Virus record (IMG/VR): IMGVR_UViG_3300028805_000096
Location: 1-64,000 of that record
DNA: 64,000 nt
Direction: 5' to 3' (one strand)
Origin: a virus
Lineage: Duplodnaviria > Caudoviricetes
Below, piece after piece: positions 456 through 64,000 of the stretch; the first letter of the stretch is position 1; the number at the start of each line of letters is the position of its first letter. The notes beneath the pieces were generated by a model. It saw only the letters and a list, made by a program, of their open reading frames with translations. It did no database searches and was not told where the DNA came from. The translations under genes and the position numbers were made by a program.

Positions 456-914
456 ATGAAATTTCAGACGAAAAAAGAACTTCTGAGATACCTCTGAAAA
501 AATGAGGACGATAGGAAGCTTGTAGATAGAATGGTAGCGAGATGAGAGGTTAGATTAGAATGAAGGATATATGTATTAGAGGAGAAGGAAGAAGCGGTTT
601 CCAAATCTTCTTTTGATTTAGCAAATCGTTTATCTAGTTTGAGTAACGATTTAGAATACTTAAATAAGGAGTATGAGAGGCTAGAGGGGCTATTAGATTA
701 TTCGCTTAGGAAATGCTATAATATTATGAAGAAAAAGGGGCTAGTAGGTTCTGAGGATACTTATGATGATTTTTATAATAAGATAACAGAATGATACCAA
801 GGAAAAATAGAGGTTAAAACCGAGAACGTGGTAGAATGTGGTAATGGTTGAGAGAAAGATTTAGGTTCAATTGTGAAAACATTTGGGATAATGAAAGCGT
901 CAGATTTGATTTAA
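456..914 (+). CDS. hypothetical protein upstream of terminase (paralogue of 28592-29188)
   Basis: Open with TGA=Gly; N-terminus MKFQTKKELLRYLGKNEDDRKLVDRMVARGEV. Confidence 0.75.
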
Positions 915-931
915 TTTCTTAAACATAAATA

Positions 932-1336
932 ATGGCTGAATTTTTAGATGCAAACAACAAGAATGGAGGTTGAATAATCGACATTCAGAATAAAAACAAC
1001 CACGCTGGAGTGGAGAGAAGAGAAGCTTCAGAGAGGGCTGAAGCGTTACTTAAGCTTATAAATGAATACAGAGTGTATTCGCATAGGTTTGAGAGTTTAC
1101 CTACTTGGGATGTATTAGAGTTTCTGAGCAAGTTAGAGAAGGAGTTATTTAATAGATTTGGGGGAGATGTAGAGAATGGGGAAATAGATAAGTTAAGGAA
1201 TGAGTATTTCTTAGTATTTGGGAAGAAACCCTTTATGGCTTGGGGAGTAGAAGATTTGAAGAAAAGAATAGAACAAGGTAAACCAGAGGAGATTTCAGAA
1301 AAAACTTTACATTCTAAAAAGAGTAGATGGAAGTAA
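932..1336 (+). CDS. hypothetical protein
   Basis: Extends track ORF 1010-1336 upstream through one TGA to the ATG at 932. Confidence 0.7.
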
Positions 1337-1899
1337 AAAGAGAGAACGCACCTAAACGTTGACCTAACGAAAAGACTAAGAACTTAGTAGGGACTAGAGA
1401 GATAGTTAGGGACTGAAAGCCTTGAAGCTGAAAATATAAGTGACCAGATAGATTAGCTGTAAAGAAAGGTTTAACAGAGAAGCAGAAAGCTTTTGTAGAT
1501 GAGTATTTACAGTCACATAATGCTACTGCTGCTTATAGAGCCGCTAAAGGTACTTTAGGGAATAGGGAAGAATGGATAGATAGTGATAGACCTAACTGAA
1601 TGCAGATGAAGAAAGTAGAGAAAGTTAAGGAGTATCTTATACAGAAATTAGCAGATGATGCTGAGTTATGTTTAGAGTTACAGATGGAAATGATACAGAA
1701 TGAGGATATACCAGCTGCCGTTAGGATGGACTGAATAAAAGATAGACTTAATAGATTATGAGTATGAAAGCAGAAAGAAGAGAACCAGTGATTTAGTGGA
1801 ATATGAGAGGTTACTATTACTATTAAACATAAGCAATCTACTGTTGTAGAGGGGGAAGTAGTGGAAGATTTAACTGATAAACCAGAAAACGATGGCTAA
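1327..1899 (+). CDS. terS: terminase small subunit
   Basis: LTEKQKAFVDEYLQSHNATAAYRAA motif; directly upstream of terL; open only with TGA=Gly. Confidence 0.9.
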
Positions 1900-3289
1900 A
1901 CTATTCCAACCTAACTTTGAGATGACTGAGAAACAAGCGGAGGCTTGGGCAGCTCTTACAGATAATAGATATAGGAATATCTGATACTGAGGATGAGCTG
2001 GATGAGGGAAGTCTTATATAGGAGTTATGTGGTTATGGTATATGGCTTGGAGATACCCTTGAACAAGGTGGTTTATCTGACGTAGGGAATTATCTAATCT
2101 TATGAAAACCACAGTTAATACCTACTATAAACTCTGACAAGACTACTGAATACCTAAAGAGTTTATGTGACATCTTGATAAGAAGTATAATATTATAAAG
2201 TTTAGCAACGGTTCAGAAATTCTCTTATTAGACTGTGCCACGCAGCCAGCAGACCCTTTATTCACTAGATTTGGTTCATTAGAGCTTACTGGTTGATTTA
2301 TAGATGAAGCGAATGAGATAGATGAACAAGCTGTTACTATCTTAAAAACTCGTATTGCTAGGCAGAAAAATAGAGAATATGGCTTAATACCTAAGTTATT
2401 ATGCACATTTAACCCAGACCAGTGACGAGTTAAAAGAACTTTCTATACACCACGAAAGTCTTGAACATTGCCAGAAGATACGATATTTATACCATCTTTA
2501 GCGACAGATAATGATTATATAGACCCAGAGTATATCACACAGCTTAGGAACTCAACAGATGAGATTACTAAACAAAGACTTTTATACTGAAACTTTGACT
2601 GGTCTTGAGATGCTGGAAAACTATTTAGACACGATGAGATAGAAGACTTGTTCGAAACTAATGTAGAAAAGAAAGATACAACTTATATCTCAGTGGATGT
2701 TGCTAGGCTTTGAGATGATAAGACTGTTATTTGCATTTGGAGAGGCTTAGAATGTATCAAAATTCTTCATTATGATAAGAATACTATTGATGATATAGCC
2801 AATAGAATAAAGGACTTAGAATACTCTTATTGAGTTGCTAGACATAATATAGTAGTAGATAGTGACTGAGTTTGAGGTTGATTAGCCGATTTGCTTAGAG
2901 GCTGTACAAACTTTGTTAATAATTCCAGACCTTATAGATTTGAGCCAGAGAAAAAATGATTTATCCTTAGAAACTATGCAAATCTAAAAGCTCAATGCTA
3001 CTTTAAACTTAAGGAAATGATGGAAAAGAGGCTTATAAGAGTTTATGCGGACTGAGTTATTAGAGATAAATTATCTGAAGAATTAGAAAATATCTTTATA
3101 TCTGGTATAGATACTGATGGTAAAGTAAAAATAGAGGATAAAAAAGACCTCAAAAGAAGAATAAACCGCTCTCCAGACTTTGCAGATGCTATTATGTTTA
3201 GAATGATATTCTTAGTTCAAGAAACAGAAGCAAATAGTGAGGTAATAACTGGTACTTATGAAATTGATTATGATGACTTGTTGTATTAG
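1892..3289 (+). CDS. terL: terminase large subunit
   Basis: Walker A YGGGAGGGKS (several Gly are TGA), Walker B GFIDEANE, TFNP coupling motif, nuclease ISVDVARLGDD and SPDFADA. Confidence 0.97.
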
Positions 3290-4180: not shown

Positions 4181-6145
4181 ATGAAAATAACAGACGTGTT
4201 AGACCAAGAAAACATAGATAAACTCTTAGCTCAAATTGACAGAGAATATCAAGAATGATTTGATTATGTTGTAAACAAAAGAAATCAATATAGAGATAGA
4301 GTTATCAGATGGAATAAACAAGCAAAAGACCCAAATAAAATCAATATCAATATGATAGCGAATGCAGAAGATGTGCTTATCGCTTCTTCTTATACAGACT
4401 GACTTACAGTTAATTTCGCATCAGCAGATGGTTGGGTATCAGCAGATAAAGCAGATAACCTTAATTATATGGCTGAGTTTGACAATAACGACCAAGACTA
4501 TCAGCAATTATACTACCAAAAAGAGCAAGATAGATACTTCTTCTGAGTAGGTATTAGATATAGATATGGTTGGGATGATGTTAAAAAGATGCCAAAATTT
4601 ATGGTTATCAACCCTCTAAGCTGGATACCAGACCCTATCCCTACACAAATGGGTAGTTTTGATGGTAGTTGATATAGATTTCACTGATTTGAGTTTACTA
4701 CATCTATTGTTGACTTAATCGCTGACTGAAGCTATGATAAAGAGCAGTTAGACAAGGTAGTTTGAGCTTACTTTAGCCCAGAAACACAGCAAAACTGGGT
4801 AGCTTATGCCTCTGCCTACAATTATGTAATGCCAACTTGCTGTGATGACCTAAAAACTAACTTCTCTTTAGATGTTTATCATCACTTTACTAACTTTGAT
4901 GGTAAAAAATATGTAGTTACTCTTACAAATGCTAGAAGAACTGTACTTAGAATAAAGGAATTAAAGCCAGTATTAGAGGAAGAAAAGAAAAACCCTAATA
5001 TGATAGAGTTCCCTATTATACTTAACTACTGGAAACCTAGAAGAAATGACCCATTTGGAGAGAGTATCTGTGACAAATTGGATGATAAACAAATCGCAAA
5101 GACAATATTATTCAACTTAAACATCATAAAAGCCAAAAAAGAAGCTCTAGGTGGAGATTTCATCTGGAACTCAAGACTTATTAAGAACAAAGACGACATC
5201 CTTAAACCTACAACAAATGGTAGAAATATCTTTGTTGACACTATGGAGAACTTATCTAATGTTGGTATGGAGTTGCCTAGAAGTCAAATCAAAGCAGATA
5301 GCATAAATATGATTACTGCTCTTGAAAATGAGGCTATGCACGATACTAATATTGATAGTCTTCAACAAGGTATCGTATCTGGAGGTAGAACTACTGCCAC
5401 AGAAAGCCAAATTGCTCAAGCTAACTCAAATATTATTGGACTTCTTAACAATAAAATCAATGCTTGGGGAGATAAGAGGTTCTGGTTTGAACGATGGAAA
5501 GGTTATCAAGAGAATTTCTCAGAAGTTGATGAGAAATCAGTTGTTATCGTTAGCAATTTCGAAGTAAAATCTTTCCCTATCAAAAAAGATGACTTCTTTA
5601 CTAAGCAAATGCCTCATATTATACTATGAACTAAGGCAGATTTGCAATCAAAGAACGAAAAAGAACAAATCTTCTGGGATAAATACTTATGAATGGTGCT
5701 AAACAACCCTACAACACCAGATGTATCAAAGAGAATAGCACAAAGAATGTGTTTCAGATGTAATGGAAAGACACCTAATGAGATAAATGTTCTTGTTCCA
5801 TTAGAAAATGATGAAACAGTAGCTGTGAACTTTGTTGAAATGATAAATCTTAACCAAGTTCCAAAGTCAATGTTCAGTTATCCACAAGAATATCTTAGAA
5901 CTTTCTGGGTATATTTCCAGAAAGCTGAGAATACAAAGGCTAAAGATGTAGTATTACAAGCATTAAGAAGTGCTATGGTAAGACTACCTTTACAACAGCA
6001 AGTAAACCCAGCCTTTACAGAGATGGCTAATAGCTCTAGCAATATTGCTATGAGCCAAGCTATGCAAAGTGCTGATAAAACTATCACATCAAGGCAAGAC
6101 TTAATACCTTGACAGTGAAGTGCTACTGCTGCATCAATTATTTAA
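4181..6145 (+). CDS. portal protein (P22-like), module 1
   Basis: About 654 codons joining track fragments 4829-5629 and 5693-6112 in one frame through TGA; FPIILNYWKPRRNDPFGESICDKL; follows terL. Confidence 0.88.
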
Positions 6146-7702: not shown

Positions 7703-8863
7703 ATGGCAAACAATTTAGATGCTTTTAGTCCAGAATACTGGAGTGCGAGAACTCAAAGACTTTTGAAGAAAAAGTTGATTGCAAGAGAGATAGCTTCAAT
7801 GGAAGAACAAGCTACTCTTAGAGATGGAGATATGGTACATAGACCATATTACTCTGATGTTGTAGTAAACAACTACACTAAAGGAGTTGATGTAACTGTA
7901 CAAGATGTATCAGCTACTGACGAATATTTAGTAGTTAATAAGTCAAAAGAAGCTACTGTATATATCGATGAAATCGATGTTAAACAGAACAAATACGATG
8001 CTGCTAACAAATACATCGACCGTATGACTTATGCTTTGAAGAAAGATATCGATGGTGCTTTCTTACAAGAAGTATTGAACGCTGAATACACAATGGATGA
8101 TGGAGATATGGGTGGAACTGCTGGAAACCCAGTAACTGTATCTGTTGCTAATGTATTCAAACTATTCACTCTTACAGAAGCTAAAATGAATGCAAACGAC
8201 ATCGAAGATACTAAACCTTGGTTCTTCGTTATCACTCCAGATGTTAAAGCTAACATCCAACAAACTAACCTAGTTAATGGTTTCAACCAAGCTGATGCTG
8301 CTTTAAGAGGAACTCTTAAAGGAATGGGATACTTAGGAACTTGGGGTAACTTCAATATCTTCGTATCTAACAATGTAGCTCACTCTAACTTAGTTACAGT
8401 TTCTTCATTAGCTGCTAATGATACATTAACTATCAATGGTGCTACAATTACTTTCAAAGCTGCACCTGCTGCTGCTGGAGAATGTAAACCAACTGCTGCT
8501 GCTTTAATCGGAATGATTAACGGAGTAATGGGAACTGATGGAGATTACGTTGAATTTGCTGCTGCTGATAGAGCTAAATTACTTTCAGTAAATGCTAAAG
8601 GAGTTGCTAACGGTTCAGACGTAGAAATCGTTACTGCTGGTTCAGTTGCTTACTCTCAATCTGGAGTAACTCTAGGAGGAGAAGTAGCTCACTGCTGGGC
8701 TGGACAATATGGATGTTCTGATATGGTTATCCAAAAAGATGTTGCAGTTCAGAAGAACAAAGAACCTAAAAAGACTGGTTACAACTATCTTTGTTGGACT
8801 TTGTACGGAATTAAAACATTCACTGAAGGTGCTAAAAGATGTATTAAAGTTGATGTTGCTTAG
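7703..8863 (+). CDS. major capsid protein
   Basis: 386 aa; FSPEYWSART..., GDMVHRP, TLYGIKTF, typical of P22-coat/HK97-fold capsids; follows scaffold. Confidence 0.93.
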   Translation: MANNLDAFSPEYWSARTQRLLKKKLIAREIASMEEQATLRDGDMVHRPYYSDVVVNNYTKGVDVTVQDVSATDEYLVVNKSKEATVYIDEIDVKQNKYDAANKYIDRMTYALKKDIDGAFLQEVLNAEYTMDDGDMGGTAGNPVTVSVANVFKLFTLTEAKMNANDIEDTKPWFFVITPDVKANIQQTNLVNGFNQADAALRGTLKGMGYLGTWGNFNIFVSNNVAHSNLVTVSSLAANDTLTINGATITFKAAPAAAGECKPTAAALIGMINGVMGTDGDYVEFAAADRAKLLSVNAKGVANGSDVEIVTAGSVAYSQSGVTLGGEVAHCWAGQYGCSDMVIQKDVAVQKNKEPKKTGYNYLCWTLYGIKTFTEGAKRCIKVDVA

Positions 8864-11924: not shown

Positions 11925-14861
11925 ATGGCATACGATTACGATAAAATGAAATCAGCTTATCAACAGCTTACTAAACAACAGCAACAAGACTGGGTAAACC
12001 AGAATAAAGATAATGCTAATGTCCAAAGATTTGCTAAAGAATATGCTGCTGAGATAGGATGAACAAAAACATCTACTCCATCTACTACCAGCACAACTTC
12101 TACAGCTTCTAAGACTACCCCAACTACTACTTATACATCTAAGCCAGAGTATCAAGGACAATGATGAATTACTACTAAAAACGACCCTAGTTCTAGTCCT
12201 TATGTAAACCAATGACAATGACAATACACATATAACCCTACTAGCTGATATTACGAGGTTAAATGACAAACTACTCAGACACAGTGATGAGATAAGATTA
12301 GACAATATTGGGATAGTTTATCTTATGAAGAACAACAGCAGAAGCTAAAAGAAAACCCAAATCTTAGAGCTAGTTTAGCTAAATATTGAGCTACTGAGAA
12401 GCAACAAGAGGTTAAGCCAGAGACTAAACCAGAATGATGAGAAACCCCATCAGAATGATGGGACTACCAAAGTGATAGTCCAGAAAGAATGGCTGAAATC
12501 GCTGCTAACCTAGAATGATATAAACAAACAATGCCTTATCTATTTAACGATAAGAGAGCATTTGATGATTTCTTTATTAACTGAAAAGGAAGAAGCCAAG
12601 CTCAAATAGATTTCCTTAATCAATGGTTTGAGAATAATAAAAAATACGGTAAATATGATGCTTTAACTCCAGATAGTATTTGATATTGAATAGCTTATGG
12701 GGACATTCCAGAAGACTATCTTACTATGTTAAAGACTACAGACCCAGCAAAGTATCAAGCTGCTTTACAAGCTAAGCAAGATGCTGAGGATAAGATAAAA
12801 GACAAAACTTCATTAGATACTACAAGTATATTATCTTGAGAGAGCGAAGATACAATAACTTCTAAAGCTATTGAATGGTTAAAGTCTCAATGATTATTCC
12901 TAGATAATGATGGAAACCTTATAGATGATAGAACTGAGAACTATGCTACTGATGAAGAAAAACAATATGCAAAAGATGCTGCTGATATAATAGCAAGAAA
13001 CTTAGATATAGATAATACGGTTAAACATACTTATGAAGATTTAGTAAAGAAATATCCTTGAGCTACTAAAGCTACGCTTATGGCTATGGCACAAGATACT
13101 AATGCTGATTTGCTTAGAGAAAAAGAGAACAACAATGTTGAACTCACAAGATTACAATGATATATGAACTATATGCAGACTGAAAGACAAGAAAGGAACA
13201 GAGTTTGAGAGAATGCTATAAATCAACTACAAAAGCAATATGGTATGTATTATCAATATACACCACAATGAATGTCTGAATTAGCACAAGCTCAATATGC
13301 TGCTACTAATGTTACATTAGACCAAGCTGATTATGGTACAGATACTCAGAAACAGATGGCTCTTGATAGAGTTCTTACTTCTATATACCAACAGTATGGA
13401 GACATTATTCAAAGACCTATGGCACAAGTTATTAACGATGTTATGGCTTTAGCTAAAAACAAAGGTATTAGCTTATCACAAGCTCTTGAAGAAAACTTTA
13501 TGTCTTTCCTTAGACAGAAGCCAGAATATCAACAGATGCAATCTATGCTCTCTGAACCTAATTTACAGATTATTTGATACAATAGTGACTGAAAGGCTGT
13601 TTACTGATATTGGGACAGTGCTACAAAAACTTTTAAGCAAGTAAGTGTATGAGCTGGTGGAATTTCTACTTGATGAACTACTTGAGATGGAACATCATAT
13701 ATTACTAATATACAGCCATTAAATAATTTTATAAGCGACCTTGAAACAAAATATGATATCGCATCTGAGTGATGAACTTGATGATGAAAGATAAGAGGTT
13801 GATGATGCTGAACAGTAGTAAATGACTATCTTGGAAGTGTATGAGATAACATCAAACTATCAGAGGCTAATGATATAAAGCCTTATGCTACTAGCAAAGT
13901 GCCAGCCGAATGAGCAGTAGCTTACTTTGACTGAACTCAGTCACGAGCAACTCCAGAAACTAAAAAACACGGTCACGTTTGAATAGTAGTTTCAGATAAT
14001 GGAGATACAATAACTGTGTTAGAGAGTAATGAAGGAACTTGACTTAGATATAAAGATTATAAAAAGTCTAGCGTTACTGGTTACTATGTGCCAGAATGAA
14101 TAAAGACAAATGAATATAAACAAAGTGAATATGGGGATGCTTTTATAGATGCTGCCAATATAATAAAACCAAAAATGCCTTCTAATGAGGCTAGGTCAGA
14201 TTTTATGGATACTGTACAAAAGTATTTGGATGTATGAAAATACACGACAGCTTATGAATATATAATGTCTAACGCAAGAAATGTGGCATCAGATAGTGCT
14301 ACTAGAGAAAAGCTAAATGCCGCCGAAACTGCAATGATAGATTTAGTTGCAATTAAGGATGCTCTTGAGGCGTATTATGCAGCTTGATGAGAAACTTGAA
14401 TATTACAATGAAATCTTGAAGATGTTGCCAATGCTTTAGGGAATACAACAGACCGTAGATTAGTTTGACTTACTACGAAAATAGCAGAGGCTATACAAGC
14501 ATATAGGAAGAATATATCTTGAACGGCTTTCTCAGAAAAAGAAGCAGAAGACTATGAAAAACTATTCCCTACTATAAAGGCTTGACAAGAGTATAATACA
14601 GCTAAGTTAGAAGAAGTCTTACAAAGTATGATTACTAGAGCTAACTGATTATACGGTAATTTAATTTGACCTAATGTATATAAAAACCTATTGACAGCTC
14701 ACGAAAGTGCAACGTGAAGAAAATACTCTGCATTCGAAGAACAGAGTGACTTGTACCAATACTTAAAGGATAATTGATATTTAAGCACTGATTGAAACGT
14801 TAAAGAACCACAAGACTTTGTTTCATATATGCAGAACATAAGAAAAGGGAAAAGATTTTAG
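11925..14861 (+). CDS. DNA ejection protein with CHAP-like peptidoglycan hydrolase domain (about 13790-14100)
   Basis: GGGCGTVVNDYL...AVAYFDG...HGHVGIV...TVLESN; homologous to 61114-63666. Confidence 0.8.
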
Positions 14862-44938: not shown

Positions 44939-44963
44939 TCTTTTATTTATTAAGAAATAAAGA

Positions 44964-46340: not shown

Positions 46341-46344
46341 TATA

Positions 46345-48266: not shown

Positions 48267-50348
48267 TTAGTTTGAACTTACTACTCGGATTATTGCATAT
48301 TCTGTTGCTCATAGGTTAGAGAATGTTACTACTCCGTTTGCACATGTGTAGTCTGTTGTTGGGAATAATGCAGTTCCAGAATCTGTGAACACCATTATTG
48401 AGCTATCACTAACTGGAGTATGTTGTAGAGTGTAAGTTGTTGCACCTGCAGAAGTTGTTTCTGTATAGAATCCAAGGTTTACTGCTATGTTTATGTTTCC
48501 GTTTCCGAGTATTGATTGGTTGTTTATTGTTTTGATATTTTGTCCACTTATCAATGTTTCCTGCTTTGTATTTAATGCATCCAATACAACGTGAGATGAT
48601 GGATATTTTGTTGTGCTATCCGTGATTGTAGCTGTATCTTTATTTGTGATATTTTCTGGTGTATATCATAAGCTATCTTGTTTTGCGTCTAATAGAGTTT
48701 TTACTACTGCACTTGATGGATAGTGAGTTGCGTCGTTTACTAGAGTTACAGTATCTTTATTTGCTTGGTTCTCTGGAGTATATCAGATTGCGTCCTGTTT
48801 ATTTGTCCATGTTTGGATCTGTCCTGCTGTTACGAACTTGTTTGTAGTAGCTGTATCATCTATATCGTCTGCGTCTAATACTACAGCTCATGTTTGTCCG
48901 TTTACTGATATTACTTCTCCACTAGATAACAATACCTGCCAATCTGCTAGTGTAGATGGATTGTTGTTATTTAGTTTTACGAAAGTTTTTGAGATATCTG
49001 TCCTGATTGCTCTATCTCATGTTTCTGCAGTCAATGCAAGCATTGCAGCTTCACTATCTACTACGAATGTCTGTCCTATAGCTAGTGGAGGTAGTACAGA
49101 ATCATCTAGTTTTCCTGATGCATTTAATGCTGCTACTCCATTTGCTACGTTCTTTTCATTTTGAAGTATGAACTGTGTTGCTGTCCCATTTGGTCATAGG
49201 ATGAATTGGTCGTTTACAGTTAAGTCTTGATCTATTGTTGCACTTCCTCCGATACGAGCTGATCCATCTATGTTAGCGTCCTGGTCGATATCTACAGATT
49301 TTTTGAAGTTAGCTGCTTCATCTACTGTGAGAGTTCCTCAAAGTCTAGTGTTTCATGTTGCTTCTAGCGTTCAGTTGAATGTTCAGTTATTTCAGCTGAT
49401 ATCTGCTCCACTTATATTTCCTGTAGCTGCTATAGTTCAATTCACTGAGGTATTTCCTGCTGTTAGTGTTCATTGGATTTCAGCATTTCATTCTATAGTT
49501 GCATTTCATCCGATATTTGCATCTCATTCTGATGTAATACTATCTACTGTTGTTGCACCTGCAGTTAGAGTTCATGTGATTTCTTCGTTTCAAGCTATTG
49601 TTTGATTTCATCCGATAGTTGAATTTCAGGATATGTTTTGACTATCTGCTGTGATATCTGTTGCAGTTAATGCTGCTAGTGTAGAAGCTCAAGCTACTTC
49701 GAAATCTCATGCTATTTGTGCATCTCATTCTATATTTAAAGCTTCTCTTACAGTTAAGTTTCCTGTGATTGTTACGTCTCACAAGTACCAAGCTAATGCA
49801 GAGAAGTCTCCAGTTATTTCTGTTCCGTTAGACAATACGAATGTGTAGAGTCAGTCGAATGGATCTGATTCTGGGTTTGTTTCTCTGATTGATTCTAGTC
49901 TTACGTCAGAATATTGAGGAATTGCAAGTCCTTGGTTTACTACGAATCTTACTTCGATGTAAGCGTCATTAATGTCTTGTACCATAAATTGTCCTACTGA
50001 AGCACTTTCAGTTGATAGGTCGATTTTCTGGTCTGCTGTCATTGTATAGAAGAATCCTACCTTTGGTGTTCCCTCTCATGAAACTTCCATTTTGTATGTA
50101 TTGTCCCATGCTATTGGTGTGTAGTTTACTCTATCCAATTCTTTTGTTTCGTTTGTCTCTGAGAAGACTTTTTTGTCATCACAGATTCCCCAGATAAGAG
50201 ATTCTGGTGTAGCCAGGTCTACGTACATTTGTCCTCCTGCTCATTGTACTAGAGTGAGGATGTCTCCTGGTTTACATACTAATCAGTTCTTTGCTACGTT
50301 AGAGTATGAGAAGCTGACCGTGTTGATTCTTGCTGTTTTTACTGCCAT
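48267..50348 (-). CDS. tail fibre/spike with beta-helix-like repeats
   Basis: 694 codons; GNxxIxG repeats, NGVAALNASGKL, NIKTINNQSILG. Confidence 0.8.
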
Positions 50349-50427: not shown

Positions 50428-50460
50428 TAAATAAAAAGAGTGCCTACACTTGTGGCACTC
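50428..50460 (-). terminator. intrinsic terminator after portal 2
   Basis: GAGTGCC/GGCACTC stem followed by a T tract on the minus strand. Confidence 0.7.
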
Positions 50461-52342
50461 ATTCTAAAGGTTTTGCTGGAGTCAGCTGTTGCATTCCTGC
50501 TTGTTGCATTGCGGATTGTCATCCCATCATTTGAGATACTGCGTCTCCTCATTCATTCATTCCTGCAAGTTGCATGATGTTTTCTTTCATCTCTGCTATT
50601 TGCTGTCTCTTCTTGTCTTTCTTTGACTCTGGGAATGTGTTGAAGTTGTAATCCCAATACAAGTCCATCAGCTTTCCTATGTTCTTTATTTCCTCTGGTG
50701 TAGCGAGTTGTGGGTTTAATTGCCACAATGCTACTTTGTTTTGTACGTATTGTGTGAGGTTGTTTTTGTCTACCATTTTCCATACTCCGTTGTTTGATAC
50801 GGTCTGTACTATTACTCTGAATCTTTGTTTGATCATGTCTTTCTTGAATTCAAAGTATCCGTAATCTCCCATATCTTCTTCCTCTATTTCTATCTTTACT
50901 CCTTTTTGCTTTATCTTCCTGTCTGGTACGACTATCTTTGGTGTCTCTACTCTTGTCTCTACCAGTTTTCCGTCAGAGTATGTTTTCTTTGTTATGTTTA
51001 TCAGCTTGTATCAGAACTGCACGATGTTATCCATTGCTGCGTTCAGACATGCTGTTAATAGATTATTCTTTCCGTCTTCCAACGATCCAAGTCTTGTGTT
51101 CCTATTGTTTTCTATTATCTCCACAGTTCCTAGCTGTGCAGCACTTGGTTCGTATGTGCTTCTTAGGTTCTCTCCTGTATCCATTGTTATCTGGTTGTCA
51201 ATGAATTGGAGTACTGCCTGGTAGTTTCCAACGTTGCTTGCTACCTGTGTGAGTTGCATGTCGTTTACTCCACCAGTCATTGATATTTTATTGATCCTGT
51301 TAGTTCTGATATTTTGTGTTCCGTCTACGTCACTTCTGTTTCAGATTAGGAGTAGAGGACTTCCTGACATTCTACTATTATCTAACAAGTTTTGAACAAT
51401 CTCTTCTTTATATACTACCATTGGTTGTATCTTCTCAGGAATTCAGATTCCGTATAGGCATGTTTCATCTGGGAAGTATTGAGCCATAGCAATTGGGAGC
51501 TGTCAGCTTATGCTTATCATCTTTCCTCTGTATATTATCGTATTGTAGTTTGCGATGATTGCCATGTCTCCTGTATCTTTGTTGTAGTATCTATGGATTA
51601 TTATTGGCTTGTTTTCGTCGTTTGTACCATTTTCTATTGATTCCAATGGATATGGTTGGTTGAAGTTATCTGTCCTTTGTGTTTTTAATAGGTTCAGATG
51701 TTTGAAGTTTGGATTATTTCCCCATCTCTTCATTACTTCCTCGTACGTCAGAGTTTCCTGGATTATGCAGTCTGTTGCGTCTGACATTCTGGCGTGGATC
51801 GCTTTGTCATCTACCCAGACGTTTCTGATAGGAATCCATTGAGGTGTGAATATGTTTTGTATCTCTACTACTTCGTCGTACTTTACATCGTATAGTCAGT
51901 CTGATTCGTCAGATGGTTTATAACTTCTTGCTGTCTTTTCCCATATTCCTGTGAAGAAGCAACACGTTCCGTATCTTCTTCTCTCTCCTAGTCCACGTTT
52001 CCATTCGTCATGGAATCCTCCAGCGTAGATTTGGTAGTCTAGCATCATCTTTGCTACTAGGATTTCGTTCTGGTCTGGCTCTCATGTTGGACGCAATGTG
52101 TAGTTTAGGTTAGTTCATTCTCTACCTGCTGACATTTCCATTACGTTGTGTTCCTCCTTTAGAGCCACAAGGTAGTTTCCGTAGGAATCATATTGTGGTT
52201 TCTTTAGCATAGTTGCGTCTATGGCGTTCCACTTTACGTCGTATGGATTACGAGCAGCTTTCATGAGATTCCATCTTTTTTGGTAGTAGGACAAGAACCT
52301 TTCGTTCTCTATCTCTACGTTGATTACTTTTTTTGGTTTCAT
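50444..52342 (-). CDS. portal protein (P22-like), module 2
   Basis: Four track fragments lie in one frame joined by TGA; YGTCCFFTG, RNVWVDD, LPIAMAQYFP..LYGIGIPE. Confidence 0.82.
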
Positions 52343-52834: not shown

Positions 52835-54697
52835 TTAAATTGATTGAACGATTTTATATGGTTGTGATTTTTGATGTAATGTCTTTCCCATCCATTCTAC
52901 TCACAAATATGTCGCAAAGTATCATCATAAGTATGTTCTCACATCTCCTGATGGATCTAATGCTCATTTAAATGTGAATCAATATGGGCTTCATGCGACT
53001 CCAGGAGTATCTGTTTGTGGTCTATAATATAGAGATATCATATCTCATTCATATAGGTCTACTTCACAGTCCATTGTTAGGTCTAGCCAAGGTCATTGTA
53101 CTGTAGCATATGCTCATCCTTGTTTTGCAGTAGCAAGCCATACTGAATTATAAGATTGATCTGTATTTCTTGATGTTTGTAAATGTATGCTTCATCTTCA
53201 TAGATTGATGTACATATTCTGTGATGGTTTGTTGTTTTCTACTATTATGTGTCAGTATACTCTATAATGACCGTCTTTTATAATGTTTATTCATTGTGCT
53301 GTTACCATATCATGATTTCATGTACATTTAGTGAATGTCGCTTGTGCTGGTACACCATTTAAGTCTGAGTCAAATGATCATGTAACAGTTTGGTCATCTA
53401 CTCTAAATACCATCGCACTCCAGATATTTCCATCTCCTGCCATTCAGTCTTTTGATAGTAGTTGCCAGTATGGATTATCCTTTGGTGCGTCATCTCCTGC
53501 TGGTACTCATCCTTGCGTGATATAGTATCAGAATATTTCATTTCCCCATGGATCAAATTCTCCTGTGCTTGCTCTTACCATAGCGAGTTGAGTATATGGA
53601 GTATTTGCGTTCCATTCTCATTCATTATGTGGAGATATTCAGTCGTTTCCTTTTTCTCCAGGAGCTCCAGGAGCACCATCTTTTCCAGGTCTTCATTCTA
53701 CTGGTACTACTATTGTTCCTCCTGGTTCTCATTGCTCTCCATCTGCACCATCTACATTGAGGAGCATCCATCCGTCACTCTCTCCTGGGATATCTTGAGA
53801 ACCTGCAGGTCTTGTTTTATCATTCCATATCCAAGAACATCCTACTCCGTCCTGGTCTGGATATCTTACTATGTCTAGGTATTCGTATGTATATGCAGAG
53901 CTCCAGTCGTTTCTTGGTCTAGGAGATTTTCCATCTTCTCCATCTTCTCCTCTTGGGAGTGTTAGGTCGAGTTCTCTCATTGTTGGAGATACTGTTCTGA
54001 TATTTGCTGCAGGAGTTTGTCCTCCTGTTACTTCTCCTATTCTAAGGTCTATTGTGTCTCCATCTTCTCCTTTTGGTCCAGGTTTTCCATCTTCTCATGG
54101 CTGTCAGTTTGCTCAAGCTGGAATTTGGAACGTTAGCTCGTAGTTATTTCCTTGTGGATCTACGATTAGGTTTGCTGGTGAACCTACTGGGAGTGTTTGT
54201 ACTGGTTTGAACGTAAATGTTGGAGTTTCTCCGTCTTCTCCCTTTGGTCATTGTGGAGATAGTGAAGAATCGAAATAGTATGTGAATTCTCACTTTGTTG
54301 GAGTTATAACTTGCTCTAGTCTGAATTGTCCTCATTTCTCTGCTTTTGTTGCATAGTTGATATGTTGCAATTCTCCGATTATCAAGAACGTTTGACCTAC
54401 GTCTTCCTGTGTTATTTCTCCGTTTTGTACTTCCATTGTGAAAGTCTCCCATCTTCTTTTTGGGAAGTAGATACACATTCTATCGTGTCACTCTGTAGCA
54501 GGTTCTTTGACTTGCTCTTTGTTATAGATGTCGTTTGTTGCGATTCACTCTATAACTGTTGATGGTGTTGCAGGTATTATGTAACCATTCTCGAGAGAGA
54601 CGAATATTCCGTCTCTCAGTTCGATTCATTCCTTGATTGGTTTTTGGATGGCTACTGGGAATAATGTCTGCCTTGTTTTATTCTTTGATGTTCCCAT
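52835..54697 (-). CDS. collagen-like repeat virion protein
   Basis: GPKGEDG, GEDGKPG, GAPGAPGEKG Gly-X-Y runs. Confidence 0.8.
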
Positions 54698-54758: not shown

Positions 54759-57700
54759 TTAGTCTTCTGATGTTCAAGCTCATCCTGCACGATATTCGTC
54801 TCCATAGTTGTTTGAGTTAAGTATCTCTCGTTGCCTGTCTGTTAGTTCCGTACTTCATTCTTCTCTATTTTCTCGTTCTATTTGTCTTTTGAGTAGGTCT
54901 TGTAGCACTCTTAGTTCAGACAAATCTTGTGCGTATAATTTTTTTCAGTTATCTTGTCGTTTTTTCTTTAGCTCATCTATTCTTTTTTGAATTTGCTCTG
55001 TTGTATAGTCTCATAGTCCTGGTTCTTTATTTACTGTACCATCTTTTGCTACGTCTACTAGTGGAGTTCATCATGTTGGCTTATTTGGTTCTGGTTTCTT
55101 TGGAGTAGTTGGTTCTTCTGGTTTATCTCATCCTTTGTTTTTCTTGGTTCTTGGATTTACTTTATCCATATTCCATAATAGTACATAGTCGTGAGATGTT
55201 TCTACTCAGTCATATTTTGTTACATCTCTCATAGTTTCTATTACTTCTTTGTTTGATTTTCCAGATTCTCATTTTATGAAGCTTGATAGCTCAGCTAGTG
55301 GTACATATTGCCACATTTCGTTTGGTTCTATTCAGAGTTTTTCACTTATCTGTTTGATTTTTTCTTCTGAGATAGTTGTTCCCTCTTTTGCTATCAATAA
55401 TCCTTTACCGTCTATTGTGTATTGGTGCTTCTTATCTGTGTATGCATTATCTGATTTTGTACTTACGGATAGTCCTATTCAGTTTGGATCGTCCTTTGTT
55501 TTGTCTAGGTCGAATTCTTTTATATTTGAATCACTTGCGTGGTAGAATTCTTTATATGGAGACAGTGTGTTTGTGAACTCTATTTTTTCTCTATCCGTCA
55601 TTTCTCATCTTGCGTCCGTTCCTCATTTGTAGAATAGGCTGTCTTCTATTTCTTTATTTATCTGATTCAACTGCTTTCTTTCTTCCTTGGATAGTTTATC
55701 GGTTTTAGTTTCTTTTTCTCATTCTGCGACTTTTTCGGACGATACTACCTCTGTTTTCTCGTTATTTTTTTGATATTCTGGTTTATATATGTTTTCTTCT
55801 ACCCACGCCATTTGCGTTTCTGTCAATCCTTTATTTCATTGGAATGAGTCGTATTCTCATATTTTCTTTCAGTCCTTAAACACAGTCACGAATGGTGCAC
55901 CTATCTGTGTCTCTGGATCGTATCATTCTACCTCCATTGATATTCATTCTAGTTCTTTGCTTCTTTGTTCTTCAGTTATTTGTGGAGTCTCATTCTGGTC
56001 TAAGTTTTGTCTTTCTTCTTCTATCTTCTCTGCCTCCTTTATTTCTTCAGCCTCTACCTCTTTTGGTTTAGCGAATTGTCCTTGTTCTTCGTATGTTAGT
56101 TTGTCGAATTCGTCTGATATCTTATCCATCTGTTTTGTGTATTCTCTCTTATTCTCTCTGTATGGAGTTTCTGACCTCTTTTTGTCTAATCTCTTATATT
56201 CGTTTGCTAGTTCAGTTTTTTGAGCTTTGAGTTCTTCCTTTGCTTGTATCTCTACGTTTGCTTGTTCTATTATTTGGTTTAGCTGAGTTTTCTCTTCTTC
56301 GGATAATCTCTTTCTCTTGTTTAATCTTTCCTGTGCGACTCTTGCTCTTGTTTTAGGACTCTCTAATGTTGCGATTTTGTCTACAGAGCTTGTATAGGTA
56401 ATGTTCTGTGACGCTTTTTTACCCATATCTGCTCTTAGCGTATCTGTCTTTGCTTTGTCGGATCTATAGAATCCTTTATATCATTTTGCATACTTTTGAG
56501 CTTGCTCTCATTCTTCTGGAGTGATTTGGCTTTCTATTCTGTCATATTCTTCAGTAGTTTCCAGAGTATCGAAGTCTCTATTCGTTTCTCTTACCATATC
56601 TTCCCTCTGTTTTTCTCGTCTCTTGTCTCATTCACGTTCCATTTGGTTTCCTTTGTAGATTCATGCTATTTCTTTTTGTGCTTGTTGCTGGTCTGGAGAT
56701 TGCATGATTTCAGCTTGTGTGTTTTGTCTTCTAGCTTTTTCTAGTGCTGATTTTGCAGCTTCTATGTCTACGTTTGGATATTTCTTTGGATTAGCGACAA
56801 CTTCTTCAAGGTCTTTGATATCTGCACCATCATAGTTTGTTGTTTCTTCTGGAGCTCATTCCTCGATTTCCATGATGAATTCTTCTATTGAAGATGGCTC
56901 TTTTTGGATTTCTTTTGCGATGTTTTCATCTGTGAGTTCTTCTCCTTTTTCTATTACTTTATTTGTTGCATCTTCTTCTATTATGTCTGCAGTTTCGTTT
57001 AGACTCTTCTCCAATATGTCTGCCACTTTCTCTGCTTCTGGAGAATATGTTGTTTCCTCAGTCTTTCAAAGTGATGCGTCGATTATTTGTTGCTCTGCTT
57101 GATTATATCCTTGCTGTGTTTTTTCCTTGTCTTTGTATGTTTCTTTTACTCATCTATCTTCTGGTAGAGTGAATGTATCTGTAGCTTCTACTCATCCTTG
57201 TGTTGATTCTGGGAGTCTTGGAGTTGTATCTCATACTCATTGACTTCTTAGATATCTTTCCCACTCGGCTTGTTTTTGTTCTCTGATTTTTGCTGCCTGT
57301 CTATCTATCAATATTTGTGTAGCGTCATCTAGCAGTTTATCTATCTCTGCTTGTGTTTTTCACTCTGCTATTTTTGATAGCTCGTTGTATCTTTCTATTT
57401 CTCCTTTCTTGAAGCTAGCTTTTGTGTTTCAGTCTACTTTTAGAGCTTCTACGTATTGGTTATATAAATCTCGGTCTAGCTTTGTTTTAACTGCTTTGGA
57501 TTTTAGTGCGTTTCATAATCTTTCTAAAGTAGTGAATCCTAGTGATCCGAGAACGAATCCTCATCGTCATCCTACAGTTGATGCTAGCATTACTCATGCG
57601 TATCTTATCCAGTTTCCTAGCCATACACGAGTTTGTTTATACTGTGTCTTTGCTTTTATTGTACTATTTACAATGTCTGGAGAATATTTTGTAAGCTCTA

Positions 57701-60700
57701 CCAGTTTTTTTATTCCTGGTAGGATATTCTCCATCTGGTCTAGTGTTCCTTTCTCATCTCGCTTTAGTATTTGATTCTTTGCGTTATCTTTTAGCATTGA
57801 ATCTTTTCATAGTAGGTCTGATAGTACTTCAAGGTTTTCTGAAAGTTCAGCATATCCTTGGTCTATCTTGCGTAGCATTTCAGATGATCCTTGTTGCTCT
57901 AGGAATTCGTTCCATCTCTCATATAACGCTTTTTTTATTGCTTTAGGGAAATTACCAGAGCTATCCCAATCTCCTTTTGAAGTGAAGTTTGTTCTGATAT
58001 TGTGTGCGTCTTTTTCTGATATCCATGATTTTTCTGTGATTATATCTGTCATGGATTCTATATATTTTGCTACAGCTCTTTCATTTGCAGACAATACTCT
58101 ACCGTCATTTGCTACTACTGCTCTTTTTGGATTTCCTTTGTCATCTAGTCGTTCTATATATTCAAGTCCGTTTTCTCTTAATAATCTTTGGAATGGTTCA
58201 CTATATAGGAATTGTCTTGATCTTATATTCTTTTGTGTAGATAGTGCATCATATAGCTTTCATATAGCTTTCTTCATTTGTTGGATTCTATCCACGTATT
58301 TTTGCATTCTTGTGAGTCCGTCTGATAGAACTTCTCTTTGGATTTCATCATTGGACAATTTATCTTCTAGCCTTGTGTCTTTTACGTTTCATTTCTTATC
58401 TGTGATTTCAGATACAAGTCTGTCTACTATTCTAATAACAGAATCAGTGAATGGATTATTCTCCACTACTTCTATTTGCTTCTCTGTAAGTCACTCTCTT
58501 CTGAATAGCTCATCCCTTGCCTCTCTCTCTTCAATTTCTTTTCTTGTTTGTTTTTCTAGGTCTGGTTTGAATATATTATCTACTGCTTCTTTTGCGTTAT
58601 CTTCTATGTCTTTCATTAAGTCCAGTATCTTTGCAATAGTCGTCTTTACTTCTTTTGCTCATTCTGTTTCTTTTACTTCGGCTGTTCATTCTACTGTTTC
58701 TGGTGCTTCCGTTACGGCTTCTTTTACTCTGACTTCAGGATCTGGCATTGCCTCAGATTCTATAGTAGTTTCTCTCTGTGGTTCAGCAGTAGTTTTAGTT
58801 GGTTCTTGTACACTAATCTCTGTAACATCTCTTACTGTTTCTGGGATATTTTCCACTACTTCTCACTCTGCTACTCTTAATTTTTGAGAATCTTTGAATA
58901 GCTTTGATGCAGTTTCGAATAGAGTATCTAGTATTGTTTCTCATCCTGTTTCTTCTTTGATCTTTGCGGCTTCTTCCTGGAATGTTTTATGAAAATTATT
59001 TAAGGCATCTTGGAATACTGCCTTTGTTATTTGCATCTTATATTTAGCTCATTGTAGATCTACATCTACCTTAGATTTTACATCCTTTGCTTTTGATTCT
59101 ATCTTTCATGTAGTATCTCAGGCCTCTTCTGGAAGCTTTGGAGTAGTAGTTCTTCTTATTTTTTCTTTTTCTTTAAGAACATCTACCAACTTTGCACCTG
59201 CTTTGATTCTATCTGTATAGACTTTTACAGCTCTACCTATTGCTGTCTTATATTTGAGATAGTCTACTCATTTTCTACCTAGGATCTTGAGTCATTGTGC
59301 TATTTTTATTGCTGATACTGCGGATACAGCTTCTCCATATTTTTCTATTGTTTTTTCATTCCATCAGTCAGAAAATCAGATGAGATTTCATAGTCATATT
59401 GCTATATCTGCTATTCCACCCATTACGTAGTTGAATACGTTATCTATTTTAGCTCATATATATGGGAGTCCTGTCGCTGTTGTGAAAGCAACTCCTCCTG
59501 GAGTTAGAGACATTATTCCAGCGAATACTGTTGATGGGATATCGAATCAGATTCTTCATAGTTTTTCATAGTCTACGTTAATTTGGTCGAAGAAATTTCT
59601 ATCACTATCTCGATCGTTTACTGTTCTATCAATGTCATAGTCTAGGTCTGATAGTTGATTTCAAAGATTTATCCATGAATCAACCAAAGCTCTAGATATT
59701 CATTTTGAAACTTCATCTTGTTTGATTTCATTTCAATTTGTGTCATAGTATTTACCGTCTTCTTCATATGCGTTTCAGAACATTAGGGAATATAGTTTGT
59801 CTTTTATCCAAGAACTATCTCCTGTGTATGTTTCTTTTAGCATAGCATTTATTTTGCTATTGAAAGACTCACTAATGTATTTGTTTGCATAGTCTGATAG
59901 TAGTCTGTTATATTCTATTGTGTCTCATGATTCTATTGTTTTCCTCAATTCTCTTAAGCTATTCATTTGAGTATCGTATGTTTCCTGGATCTTATTCAGT
60001 TCATTTGCAGTAAGATTGAAATTAGTGTAGGTATTGAATGCGTCTTGTAGTTCTTTTATATCTGCCTCTCATTTGTTTGCAGCAAGTACGGATCTTACTA
60101 GGTTGTAGTCTGATGCTCATGATATGTTATATCCAAGCTCGTTAAACTGGTTTGCTGCGTCTTTTATTATCATTGCAGATTGGATGTATTTTGTTATTTC
60201 TTCTGGAGTTCTTCATTCAAGCTTCTCTGCTCATCAAGCGAATGCAGATATTCAATATGCGATAATATCTTCATCCGTTAATGCTTCTAGTAGGGAATCT
60301 TGTTTGTTGGCATAGTTATCATTAACTGACAGAGCACCATAAAAGTCTGCATATTGGTTTATATCTCTTCTGTTATCTGTCTCTACGTCATATAGACAGT
60401 CTTGAATAAATGCATTTATTGTATCATCTGACACGTCTTGCCATTCTGGATATGTTTCTTTGATTTGTTCCGCAGTCAGAACTCCTCAGTTTTGAGCGTA
60501 TTCATATGTTATTGAGTTATATGCGTCTCACAATGTTGATGTAGAGTCGAGTGATCTTACTATTGGCTTTGATACAATAGTATTCCCGTTTGTTAGATAT
60601 ACAGTATCTCATTCGTTATTTGTCCATCATTCGTTCAGTCATTTATCTATTCCAAGACTCTTTGCCAATACATCTATTGGAGATGTTCATGTTCTAACTC

Positions 60701-61094
60701 ATTCGAATAGTAGGTCTCCTTTGTTTCCCTTTTCTTCTACTTGTTTTGATATTTCATAATCTTCGGCTATCATCTTTGACCCTTGCTCGTATGCTGTTCC
60801 TATATCTTTTCATGCTATTTTTGATGTCACTCTTTGTACTCATTGCTTTGCTACGTCCACTATATTTCTTGGACTTTCCACGTATTCTATTTCTTTAAGC
60901 TGAGACTTTTGTTCTGGAGTCGTTTCGGATATTGTCGTAGATGGGTATTTGGGAGCTTGAGATTCTATTATATTAGAAACTCATTTAGGTATTTCTATGT
61001 CTGGTGTAGGCGTACCTGTTCATGTTGATAGCTTTTGAACTGAATTACTTCTTGCTTGCTGCTCTGCTAAGAATTTTTTTCAAGATGTTGCCAT
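54759..61094 (-). CDS. giant (about 2111 aa) ejected/polyvalent protein with C-terminal ART-like domain
   Basis: All minus-strand track fragments share one frame; FYHAS motif near 55540; continuity only spot-checked. Confidence 0.7.
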
Positions 61095-61113
61095 GTTTTA
61101 TGTTGAATTTTGG

Positions 61114-63666
61114 TTAAAAGTTCATCACAGGTTTGATTACAGTTCCTGTATTATTATTGGCTTGGTATGCTCATTGGCTACTGAAGTTTGATTTACTCAT
61201 CTCTGGGATAGCTGGTCAGTTGGTTATGGTCCTTACTTGCTCTGCCAAGATATCTATTGCAGATCTTGATTTTTCATCTAATCCCTCTTTTTTTAAGTAT
61301 CTCATGAGCTCTTGTTTATTTGCTCGGAAGTCATATGGATTACCCTTTACGCTTTCGTATGCCTTGAGTAGTTCTGTGTATGTTGTTGGTCAGATTACGT
61401 CTGCGTATTTTGTATTTATCGTTGTTAACATTCCATCTAATGCTCAGTTTATGATTGCAGTGTTAAGTTCTTTACTATTCTTTGTGCTAGGGAAGATTGA
61501 TTGATATTCTTTGGTTTCTTTTTCAGAGAATCATGCACCTGTAATAGCTTTCCTATAATTAATGATAGCTGTATTTATTTGAGTTGCAAGAGCTCTAAGT
61601 TTTGGATCTTTTACTTCTCCTATCTTTTCTGCCACATCTTCTTCTAGTCCTGCAAATAGTGATGTTTCTCATCCCATTTTTTCATATTGGTCTAATGCTA
61701 TTTGAATAGATGCAAGTTGTCCTAGTGCGTTTTGTGCTGCATTAAGTTGGTTCTTTTCGTCTTGTCCAAGTCATGATACTGATTTTGAAAGGATATACTC
61801 CAATGCACCATCATAGTTTCAGGAATCCACAAATTTCTTCACATTATCTGTGAATTGTCATTGGAATGCTACGGATCGGTTTGGATTTACTGCTAAATCT
61901 GCTGCAGTCGTAAATGCAGTATTTGCTTCTTGATTAGATGTTCCAGGAGTAGTTTGCTCTGCTGTTCAAGGAGTATAATATCATGTCACATCTGATAGCT
62001 TATATGTAGTGTATCCTAATCCCATTTTGTTTGAACCGTTACTATCGAGCAATGTTACAGTTCATTTTTTTGGATCTATGCTTACTACTATTCCTGTATG
62101 TCAGTATTTTTTTGTATTTCATGTTGCTCGGCTTTGTGTTCAGTCGAAGTATGCTATAGCTCATTCTGTAGGATATTTAGCTGTAGCGTAAGGTGCAAGG
62201 TCTTTTGCTTGGCTTATCTTTAAATTAGAACCTAAGAATCATAGATATTCATTTACTGGTTCTCCGCACCATCATTGTCTGATTGCTCATCCACTTGCTA
62301 TTAGGTCTTTATATGTTGTTACAAAGTTGTTGTATGCGGTTTGAACATTGGCTGTTCCTCATCATGTGAGTTCTGATACATCATATCCATAGTTCGCTGC
62401 GATGAAGTTTTGCATAGCTTTTTGTCTTTCATTTGCATCTTCTATTCCTTGTATATATTTTAATACAGCGTCAGACATTGCTGTTGATGTACTTCCTTGG
62501 AGTTTTGATAGAGCTTTCAAGTTATCCTCTGCTGTTAATATCTTGTTATCTATCTCTTGGAATTGTTGCAATACTGAAAGTTGTATAGATTTCACAGCAT
62601 CGTCAAAATCTTCTCATAGTCTTTGTATGTTTGTATTGTAATCTTGTATTGCTCTTATGTATGAAGCTCTTTGTTTTAGAGATGAGTATATGTAGTTATT
62701 TTCTAAGTCGTCCATGTTTTGTTGGTATCCTTTTTCTACTCTCTGAATCATATATTCTGATCCGCTTCTGTCTGCTATTGCACTCCCTACGCTTGCTGCT
62801 CGTTTTTCGTCGAACATACTTCTTTTTAGTGTTTGCATTGCAGAATTAAATTGAGCGTCTAGGTTTGTTTTGGCTAGGTTATAATCTTCCATAGTTCTTT
62901 GGAGGTTTATATCGTAGTCTTCTTCTGCTCTGAAGAAGTCTTTTAGTTGTTCTTGTGCGAATTCTTCTCCTATGGATACAAGCTCGCTTGCTTTACCTTG
63001 TTGTATTTTTCTTACAACTTCCTGGTCTACTCAAAGCTGGTTTGCTATTGTTGCAGTATCATATATTCATGCTGTGTATGCTTTTTGTATCTCTTTGATT
63101 AGGTTGTTTATATCTGCTACGTTTGTGCTTCCTGTAGTGTATTGATAGTTTTCACTTGCGAGTTTTAATGATCCCAGACCTTTTATGCTATCATTGAGTT
63201 GAGATACTGCTTTTTGGAATGTTGCGTCTGCGTTTGTATCGTCTATCTTTGGTTCGTACATATCAAAATTACCTTTTGCTTTAAGGTCCAAAGTAGAGTT
63301 TGGAGTAGTGGTTGTTGCCTTTGTTGGTTCTACTATTCAATTTTTATTGTTCTCGGAAGTGTTAGAAAGGATTTCTAGCATATTATTATAATCTACACTT
63401 CATTGTCATTGATTTTGACCTAGAGCGTATTCTTCTCTCCTTGTTGCGTTGTTTGTACTAGGAGAAGATGGATTCGCTCCATCTATTTTTGCACTACCAC
63501 CATTCATTGTTTTGCTTGGCTGTGCATTTGCTGTGGCTTCACTAGTATTTGGTGCTATAGTACCTCATTTATTTCCTCAATATACGATGTCTTCGTGTCA
63601 GAGGTATTTTCAGTTTTTATCATAGACTATACCATCTTTTACTGTGTGTCAATATTGGTTTGCCAT
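61114..63666 (-). CDS. DNA ejection protein with CHAP-like domain (about 61970-62300)
   Basis: GWCGEPVNEYL...AIAYFDG...YGHTGIV...LLDSN; homologous to 11925-14861. Confidence 0.8.
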
Positions 63667-63670
63667 TTGT

Positions 63671-64000
63671 TTAGAATTTATCGGATAAATCGAAGTTTCC
63701 TACAGGTGTTGCACGTATTGCCAATCCTGAAAGGTAAAGGTCTGCACCTGGTGTCTCAGACTTTATTTGTACTCTTATTCTCTTTCCCTTTCTCCTTACC
63801 ATTGCTTGGTCTAGGACTAAGTCTATTGGGAATAGTAAATTGTTATATTCGTTTACTACGTCTCTGTCAGTTGGATCGTATTCTGGTATTTCTGGTCCTC
63901 ATACTTCTATTTGTAGTCTCTGGTATGTATCGTATATTTGCTGTCGGTTTACTTTCTTATTGCAGATTTGTTTTCCGTCCACATAAACATTTACTTCGAA
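63671..64000 (-). CDS. C-terminal part of a tail tubular / stabilisation protein (truncated by the window)
   Basis: Open frame ending KGKRIRVQIKS...; lies upstream of the ejection protein, as in module 1. Confidence 0.6.

Follow-up and report, generated by a model that had tools for sequence, protein, structure and literature searches.

IMG/VR record IMGVR_UViG_3300028805_000096 is very probably an assembly composite of two recoded phages joined at a shared gene cassette

We analysed bases 1-64000 (hereafter the window) of a 77,336-bp virus record, IMGVR_UViG_3300028805_000096 (G000 in the comparisons), which IMG/VR and CheckV class as linear and 100% complete. An initial annotation of the window had described two homologous but divergent virion modules, one rightward (456-25828) and one leftward (42951-64000), flanking a single replication region, and had offered as explanations a dual-module phage formed by fusion or recombination, a pair of adjacent phages, or a chimera of the assembly. 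Genes were called with TGA as a sense codon (see below) and searched by profile against PHROGs and Pfam; 69 of the 83 candidate open reading frames (ORFs) were scanned against PHROGs or Pfam, the other 14 all being shorter than 110 aa. Codon-usage correlation (r), GC and the TGA/Gly fraction were compared region by region, that is, between the late and early genes of a first phage (A), the late genes of a second phage (B) and the replication region. The comparison set included A-type relatives from IMG/VR (G001, G002, G004 and G005) and B-type metagenome contigs (L052, L054, L067, L071 and L072).

The left part of the record (1-27666, +) was assigned to phage A by its collinearity with G001 and G002 and by PHROG matches. 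The late operon of A (456-25677, +) encodes terS (1327-1899, +), terL-1 (1892-3289, +; phrog_2), portal-1 (4181-6145, +) and the major capsid protein (MCP) MCP-1 (7703-8863, +), all found with PHROGs, together with a CHAP-domain protein (11925-14861, +; Pfam PF05257, 28.2 bits), fibres and lysis genes; a 79-aa holin-like transmembrane protein lies at 23279-23518 (+). The distal end of the A early operon follows on the opposite strand (26046-27612, -). Terminators had been placed at both convergent joins of the record: a hairpin terminator is present at 25846-25874, but a simple scan scored none at the 42.9-kb join.

There are 30 close relatives of terL-1 in IMG/VR. Two of the A-type genomes, G001 (41,934 bp) and G002 (41,345 bp), are complete and have direct terminal repeats (DTR). 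Positions 932-28491 of the record are collinear with both at 70-99% amino acid identity, the codon usage of this left part correlates with that of their late genes at r = 0.99, and the genes of B are absent from both except as distant homologues. The left part amounts to about two-thirds (~66%) of the ~41.5-kb phage A. Complete A-type genomes have an early region of ~13 kb with a GC of 0.25-0.26 and a TGA/Gly fraction of 0.77-0.86, and none of this AT-rich early/replication region is in the record. The start of the record adjoins the edge of an A-type tract of 11-16% GC, and its first 250 nt have a GC of 0.21; the record start is likely to be a short-read assembly break, which would explain why the rest of A is missing. 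In A-type phages this tract, which separates the early operon from the divergent late one, spans ~3.5-4 kb with a GC of only 11-16% (34.0-37.5 kb in G001, 20-22 kb in G004 and 14-18 kb in G005), and it is probably a recurrent assembly breakpoint.

The remainder of the record carries the genes of phage B. The B early operon (28549-39585, -), delimited by PHROG matches and codon usage, comprises small leader-2 genes (described below), an A/C-rich ORF (29468-30145, -) and replication genes, among which PHROGs identified an HNH protein (33062-33760, -), NinG/Rap (33747-34265, -), a primase (35825-36718, -), DnaB (37526-38536, -) and an initiator (38562-39215, -). A rightward block (39881-42852, +) follows, with an ERF recombinase (40145-40711, +; Pfam PF04404, E 2e-12), a PD-(D/E)XK nuclease (40837-41664, +; Pfam PF12705, E 1e-6), a further gene (41908-42483, +) and, at its end, a tRNA-Met(CAT) (42780-42852, +; ARAGORN). 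The initiator, DnaB, primase and ERF genes named in the initial annotation are therefore all present, by PHROG matches and, for ERF, by Pfam.

The B late operon occupies the rest of the window (42951-64000, -), as its distal part, and runs on to 77180 outside it. By PHROG and Pfam matches and gene order it encodes an 82-aa holin-like transmembrane protein (42951-43199, -), fibres (43361-47931, -), a tail protein (48267-50348, -), a portal-like protein, portal-2 (50444-52342, -), another fibre (52835-54697, -), a 2111-aa protein (54759-61094, -) and a CHAP-domain protein (61114-63666, -; Pfam PF05257, 27.8 bits). The portal, CHAP, fibre and holin genes reported for each module are thus found once TGA is read as sense, but portal-2 rests on a match to phrog_332, annotated as a head-tail adaptor (E 2e-11), and on a sub-threshold match to P22_portal; a search of PDB sequences with portal-2 gave no meaningful match. 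The report of only one terL and one capsid gene was an artefact of the window edge. Beyond 64 kb, where the initial annotation had suggested looking for a second set, lie terL-2 (72594-74183; phrog_38, E 7e-86) and, downstream of it, a probable capsid gene, MCP-2 (391 aa; 69035-70210, -), while a ParB-methyltransferase gene (75186-76526; PHROG/Pfam) lies upstream of terL-2. A PHROG scan at relaxed thresholds gave no match for MCP-2 or the other B head genes. Relatives of terL-2 at 86-98% were found in 23 metagenome contigs, and a terL-2 pattern scan of IMG/VR found no relatives.

We next compared the record with itself. Self-BLAST showed that its last 156 nt (77181-77336) repeat positions 27638-27793. 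Compared base by base, the homology begins at the stop codon (27641) of a small gene at 27642-28013 (-), and the two copies differ by single-nucleotide polymorphisms at 27640, 27660 and 27666, the latter two synonymous. From there the copies are the same, with 77210-77336 matching 27667-27793 at 127/127 positions up to the final base of the record. The largest k-mer used by metaSPAdes in the JGI pipeline is 127. Because the contig end repeats an internal site by exactly this length, the record has the form of a graph lasso, in which a tail (1-27666) enters a 49,543-bp cycle (27667-77209) through a 127-nt node (27667-27793) in the 3' part of gene 27642-28013 (-).

Overlaps of the same length occur in the relatives: the DTR of G002 is 127 nt, and the first 127 nt of G005 recur exactly at 41852. 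G005 (59.4 kb; classed as linear, 100% complete) has the form of a k=127 lasso (1-127 = 41852-41978), with a 41.85-kb unit and a 17-kb tail. G004 (66.5 kb; classed in the same way) is built as X-R-Y-R-Z. Its repeat R measures 529 bp, of which 416 nt are exact (31176-31704 and 65402-65930), and holds a 37123-like gene and the 25-nt leader described below; the contig runs 570 bp past the second repeat. Both look composite like the present record.

The cycle corresponds to a complete genome. In five B-type contigs (L052, L054, L067, L071 and L072), homologues of record 28.47-29.05 kb lie only 0.3-0.7 kb from homologues of 77,175-77,185, and module A is not between them; the length of one, Ga0310690_10001125, is 49,774 bp, near the 49,543 bp predicted. 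Read as a circle, the order of B is coherent: the early operon runs leftward (initiator, DnaB, primase, NinG, HNH, small genes) to a cassette site, then to the ParB-methyltransferase, terL-2, head, tail, fibre and holin genes, and finally to a short divergent block with ERF, the nuclease and tRNA-Met.

The replication region belongs to B and not to A. This region (28.6-39.6 kb) has a GC of 0.38-0.44 and a TGA/Gly fraction of 0.10-0.47, and its codon usage correlates with that of the B late genes at r 0.78-0.90, against 0.31-0.59 with A. L052, an independent contig, carries the genes of 28.5-35.4 kb, including NinG and HNH, together with terL-2. The assignment follows from the match in codon usage and from this linkage of replication-side genes to terL-2. 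A phage A of 1-42.9 kb that owned the replication region would fit the size of its 41-42 kb relatives; we reject this partition because of codon usage, the lasso repeat and the linkage seen in L052.

Tail and cycle meet in a shared segment, S (27641-28548, -), which consists of three small genes (27642-28013, 28044-28313 and 28306-28491), each preceded by a 25-nt leader. The composition of S is A-like (GC 0.31, TGA/Gly 0.88, r ~0.9 with A), and S lies physically in the B cycle, k-mer-continuous with the B early region. Positions 28020-28548 match G001 610-81 at about 97-98% DNA identity, after which homology ends abruptly, and this block is bracketed by two copies of the leader. Across 28.55 kb, GC increases from 0.31-0.34 to 0.38-0.44, the TGA/Gly fraction declines from 0.66-0.88 to 0.10-0.47, and codon-usage r decreases to 0.3-0.6. 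The real discontinuity is therefore at 27.64-28.55 kb, whereas the initial annotation had put the join near 28.5-30.2 kb, ~1 kb too far right. In an exact-pattern scan of IMG/VR, the two-gene cassette was found only in G001, and the 27642-28013 allele had no other carrier. In B-type relatives the closure site shows the same leader, followed by different small genes; L067 carries a gene that resembles 28044 (63% identity). It is most economical to suppose that the cassette set reached B recently from an A-type phage, giving at least 127 identical bases.

The 25-nt leader, TAATCAGACTTTTATATTATTTACC, is at 28500-28524 (-), with a copy containing one mismatch at 28022-28046 and copies of its 14-nt core at 27631-27644 and 39236-39249 (-). 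The motif TAATCAGACTTTTA had been noted on both sides of the 29-30 kb tract, and we find it on the minus strand at 27631, 28033, 28511 and 39236. The exact 25-mer is found in ~36 further IMG/VR contigs, where it precedes the ATG of ORFs of 20-179 aa by 1-11 nt, sometimes in arrays with a spacing of 173-300 nt. The leader contains a -10-like TATATT, and one copy has a promoter-like TTGATA-N18-TAGTAT upstream. The A/B junction falls exactly at cassette boundaries, namely a gene stop codon and the 25-nt leader. From these positions, the leader appears to act as the boundary sequence of exchangeable cassettes across this phage group.

This arrangement resembles the promoter-early stem-loop (PeSL), a mobile regulatory cassette of T4-like phages (Arbiol et al. 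2010, PMC2839356; Comeau et al. 2014, PMC4122927). In both cases, a short conserved sequence precedes small variable early ORFs, and homology between genomes starts and stops there, marking exchange points between unrelated DNA. The leader differs from PeSL in its sequence, in its occurrence in ~40-50 kb phages of recoded candidate-phyla-radiation (CPR) bacteria, in that its regulatory role is putative, and in being common to two unrelated phage lineages rather than confined to one family. Two unrelated lineages with a rare code have small early genes in common that are near-identical and follow the same 25-nt leader, a PeSL-like logic in phages of CPR bacteria, and the shared cassettes offer a concrete handle on gene flow among the phages of an uncultivated host.

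We consider it very probable, from the sequence comparisons, that the record is a composite contig in which the assembler made the A-to-B join, and not one replicon. A and B of this sample would carry a near-identical cassette set (27641-28548) with at least 127 identical bases; the assembler would have passed from A into B at these bases, circled once through the full circular map of the unrelated phage B (27667-77209; 49,543 bp) and stopped on meeting the same k-mer, and the remainder of A would have been lost as an AT-rich dropout at the 11-16% GC tract. The comparisons establish the lasso topology, the separate existence of A-type and B-type genomes, the assignment of the replication region to B, and the code and leader that both phages have; from these we infer that the join reflects an assembly choice rather than a physical molecule. 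This reading is favoured because the second copy of S is cut off by the contig end after exactly one k-mer, because A is incomplete in the way expected from AT-rich dropout, and because sister records carry the same lasso signature. It is also favoured by the two terLs of different families, the compositional break, the position of the junction exactly at cassette boundaries and the lack of an integrase among the scanned ORFs. Moreover, both parents occur alone elsewhere: the comparison with related contigs, which the initial annotation had proposed, showed A-type and B-type units separately and the joint form in none.

Such chimeras are documented behaviour of metaSPAdes, and inter-genome chimeric contigs in short-read viromes and metagenomes have been benchmarked (Roux et al. 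2017, PMC5610896). The present record is like those contigs in having two co-existing viruses with a highly similar region, a metaSPAdes-type path, an end overlap of k-mer length and parents that can be recovered alone. It differs in that the shared region is a 0.9-kb mobile cassette set of unrelated lineages rather than strain-level similarity, and in that the path takes in one whole circular genome, which gives the lasso shape.

Some points weigh against a join made by the assembler. A true A::B cointegrate and a pair of circles with S in common produce one and the same de Bruijn graph, so that sequence alone cannot decide between them. The assembler crossed the ~0.9-kb S into B without stopping at a fork, and there could therefore have been no competing A-right branch in the sample. 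Lastly, the ERF/PD-(D/E)XK system encoded by B would potentially be able to make real cointegrates. A molecule of this kind would have arisen in a co-infected Absconditabacteria cell by Campbell-type homologous recombination in S, possibly catalysed by B's own ERF and PD-(D/E)XK proteins, to give the order A-left, S, B, S, A-right, with the contig breaking at the second S. Consistent with such an event, B lies between direct repeats of S whose alleles differ at the outer edge, cassettes bounded by the leader serve as points of exchange throughout the group, and G004 continues past its second repeat; however, the G004 repeat has a 416-nt exact core and is therefore also graph-ambiguous. In the present record, the bases of the repeat that are identical up to the contig end number exactly 127, the k-mer length, as a graph loop gives by construction; both parents occur alone in other assemblies, and the joint form was found nowhere else. 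In addition, a cointegrate of ~91 kb would exceed the expected capacity of the head of a 41-kb or 49.5-kb phage and would hardly be packageable by either, making it a minor intracellular intermediate at most. We therefore regard a real cointegrate as unlikely; if it were true, the record would capture an intermediate by which unrelated phages of a recoded host trade cassettes.

Two prophages, side by side or nested in an Absconditabacteria chromosome, with the 156-bp repeat as attL/attR, would also place a 49.5-kb unit between direct repeats, and code-25 prophages of Absconditabacteria are known (PMC10746230). By contrast, no integrase or site-specific recombinase was found among the scanned ORFs, host genes are absent from the record, the repeat corresponds to the 3' portion of a phage cassette gene rather than to a tRNA or att core, and A-type relatives assemble as closed 41-42 kb circles, which together make this arrangement very improbable. 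We give least credence of all to one genuine phage of at least 77 kb with two virion modules around a single replication region, for which the contiguity of the record, its rating of 100% complete and the common genetic code could be cited, since the two terLs are unrelated, codon usage breaks sharply at 28.55 kb, the topology is that of a lasso, no relative keeps the joint architecture while the halves occur alone, and the A half lacks the early region present in all its complete relatives.

The arguments that the initial annotation had raised against a single genome were sound. Of the forms it had proposed, the best fit is a contig that holds two different phages, with the assembler as the most probable cause of the join, and a single dual-module phage is rejected. 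The record, although labelled linear and 100% complete, holds one complete 49.5-kb phage and part of another, and any genome size, gene inventory, taxonomic placement or host prediction taken from it would be in error. Among the longer relatives, at least G004 and G005 look composite in like manner. Taken as a biological system, the "dual virion module" is not genuine. Its by-products do exist but are of known kinds, namely two phage lineages of Absconditabacteria type whose code is triple-recoded, and a system for the exchange of leader cassettes that is common to both.

We also compared the two virion modules with each other. The CHAP proteins (11925-14861 and 61114-63666) are 37% identical over 495 aa and the holin-like proteins (23279-23518 and 42951-43199) are 37% identical. 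The duplicated genes listed in the initial annotation are present as weak paralogies (456 and 28592, 59% over 32 aa; 27642 and 34565, 33% over 125 aa). Of the homology reported between the modules, only that of the CHAP protein, the holin, one small gene and fragments of the fibres stands, and these are all that the modules have in common. It does not extend to the head genes: terL-1 and terL-2 fall into different PHROGs (phrog_2 and phrog_38), and profile-profile comparison with hhalign found no similarity between MCP-2 and MCP-1 or between portal-2 and portal-1. Because the head genes lack similarity and few other genes are in common, the modules are not divergent copies of each other; as far as the comparisons go, they look like the structural genes of two phages that swapped some host-interaction and lysis genes. 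Two smaller resemblances were seen. A 55-aa stretch at 51% identity occurs in both late operons (24381-24575, +, and record 67387-67554, -), and a 60-nt element at 81% identity (25769-25828 and 42910-42973) immediately precedes the terminator of each late operon.

A and B are both written in the code of Absconditabacteria (TGA=Gly, CGA/CGG=Trp). With translation table 11, no ORF in the window exceeds 386 aa; reading TGA as sense opens long frames on both strands. Reassignment of TAG or TAA to Gln left the frames closed. The ORF at 21098-22654 has 120 TGA codons among 518, which translate as Gly runs, and these poly-Gly runs settled TGA as Gly. Reading TGA as Trp would result in poly-Trp runs and is contradicted by the substitution counts among orthologues. 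In the A lineage, TGA stands opposite GGN 263 times and TGG 4 times, and CGA/CGG stands opposite TGG 29 times and AGA 2 times; in the B lineage, TGA stands opposite GGN 269 times and TGG 16 times, and CGA/CGG stands opposite TGG 71 times. The code of Absconditabacteria was predicted as UGA=Gly and CGA/CGG=Trp (Shulgina & Eddy 2021, PMC8629427), and code-25 phages of these bacteria, including prophages, were already known (Liu et al. 2023, PMC10746230). Like those phages, A and B have dense in-frame TGA, and here TGA aligns with GGN, and CGA/CGG with TGG, in both; the term CGA has 0 occurrences in the main text of that paper. Because both phages use this code, they probably infect the same host lineage.

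The use of TGA varies among genes. The product of 21098-22654 (+) is a 518-aa Gly/Cys-rich late protein with GGGGGGG runs, in which TGA supplies 120 of 152 Gly codons and 23% of the total codons. Its PHROG match is phrog_2295 (E 3e-11), and it has no homologue among the five A-type relatives compared. MCP-1 has 0 TGA against 30 GGN codons and the probable MCP-2 has 5 against 41. TGA/Gly is only 0.10 in the earliest small genes of B (28592-32982, -), against 0.5-0.9 elsewhere. This avoidance of TGA-Gly in some genes could reflect expression level, timing or gene origin.

The B early region has further elements of its own. The leader AACCAAACAACAAC (-) is B-specific and stands directly before the ATG of small early genes (30516, 31127, 31418, 31679, 32008, 32421 and 39229); it had been described as confined, and it occurs only at 30.5-32.4 kb and 39.2 kb. 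At the genes behind it, the leader lacks a Shine-Dalgarno-like purine run, unlike at those behind the 25-nt leader. An intergenic element of ~60-100 nt occurs four or five times at 75-88% identity (30544-30644, 32467-32567, 37001-37063, 39715-39793 and 31758-31790); one copy contains the palindrome GATAAC-N5-GTTATC (32549), and the element is also found in L052, a relative of B. It probably serves as the promoter/operator unit of B itself. An Rfam scan of the whole window returned nothing at the gathering threshold. A search for contigs encoding the TGA-free gene 30190-30501 returned only a 1.2-kb fragment. Next to this gene, 29386-30186 is a G/T-rich tract whose plus strand is almost without A; its minus strand encodes the 225-aa low-complexity ORF at 29468-30145 (GTG start, no Pfam match), inside the B early operon. 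Finally, the fibre-like genes at 43361-44938 (-) and 44964-46340 (-) are adjacent paralogues with 74% identity over 235 aa, and the differences between them are clustered.

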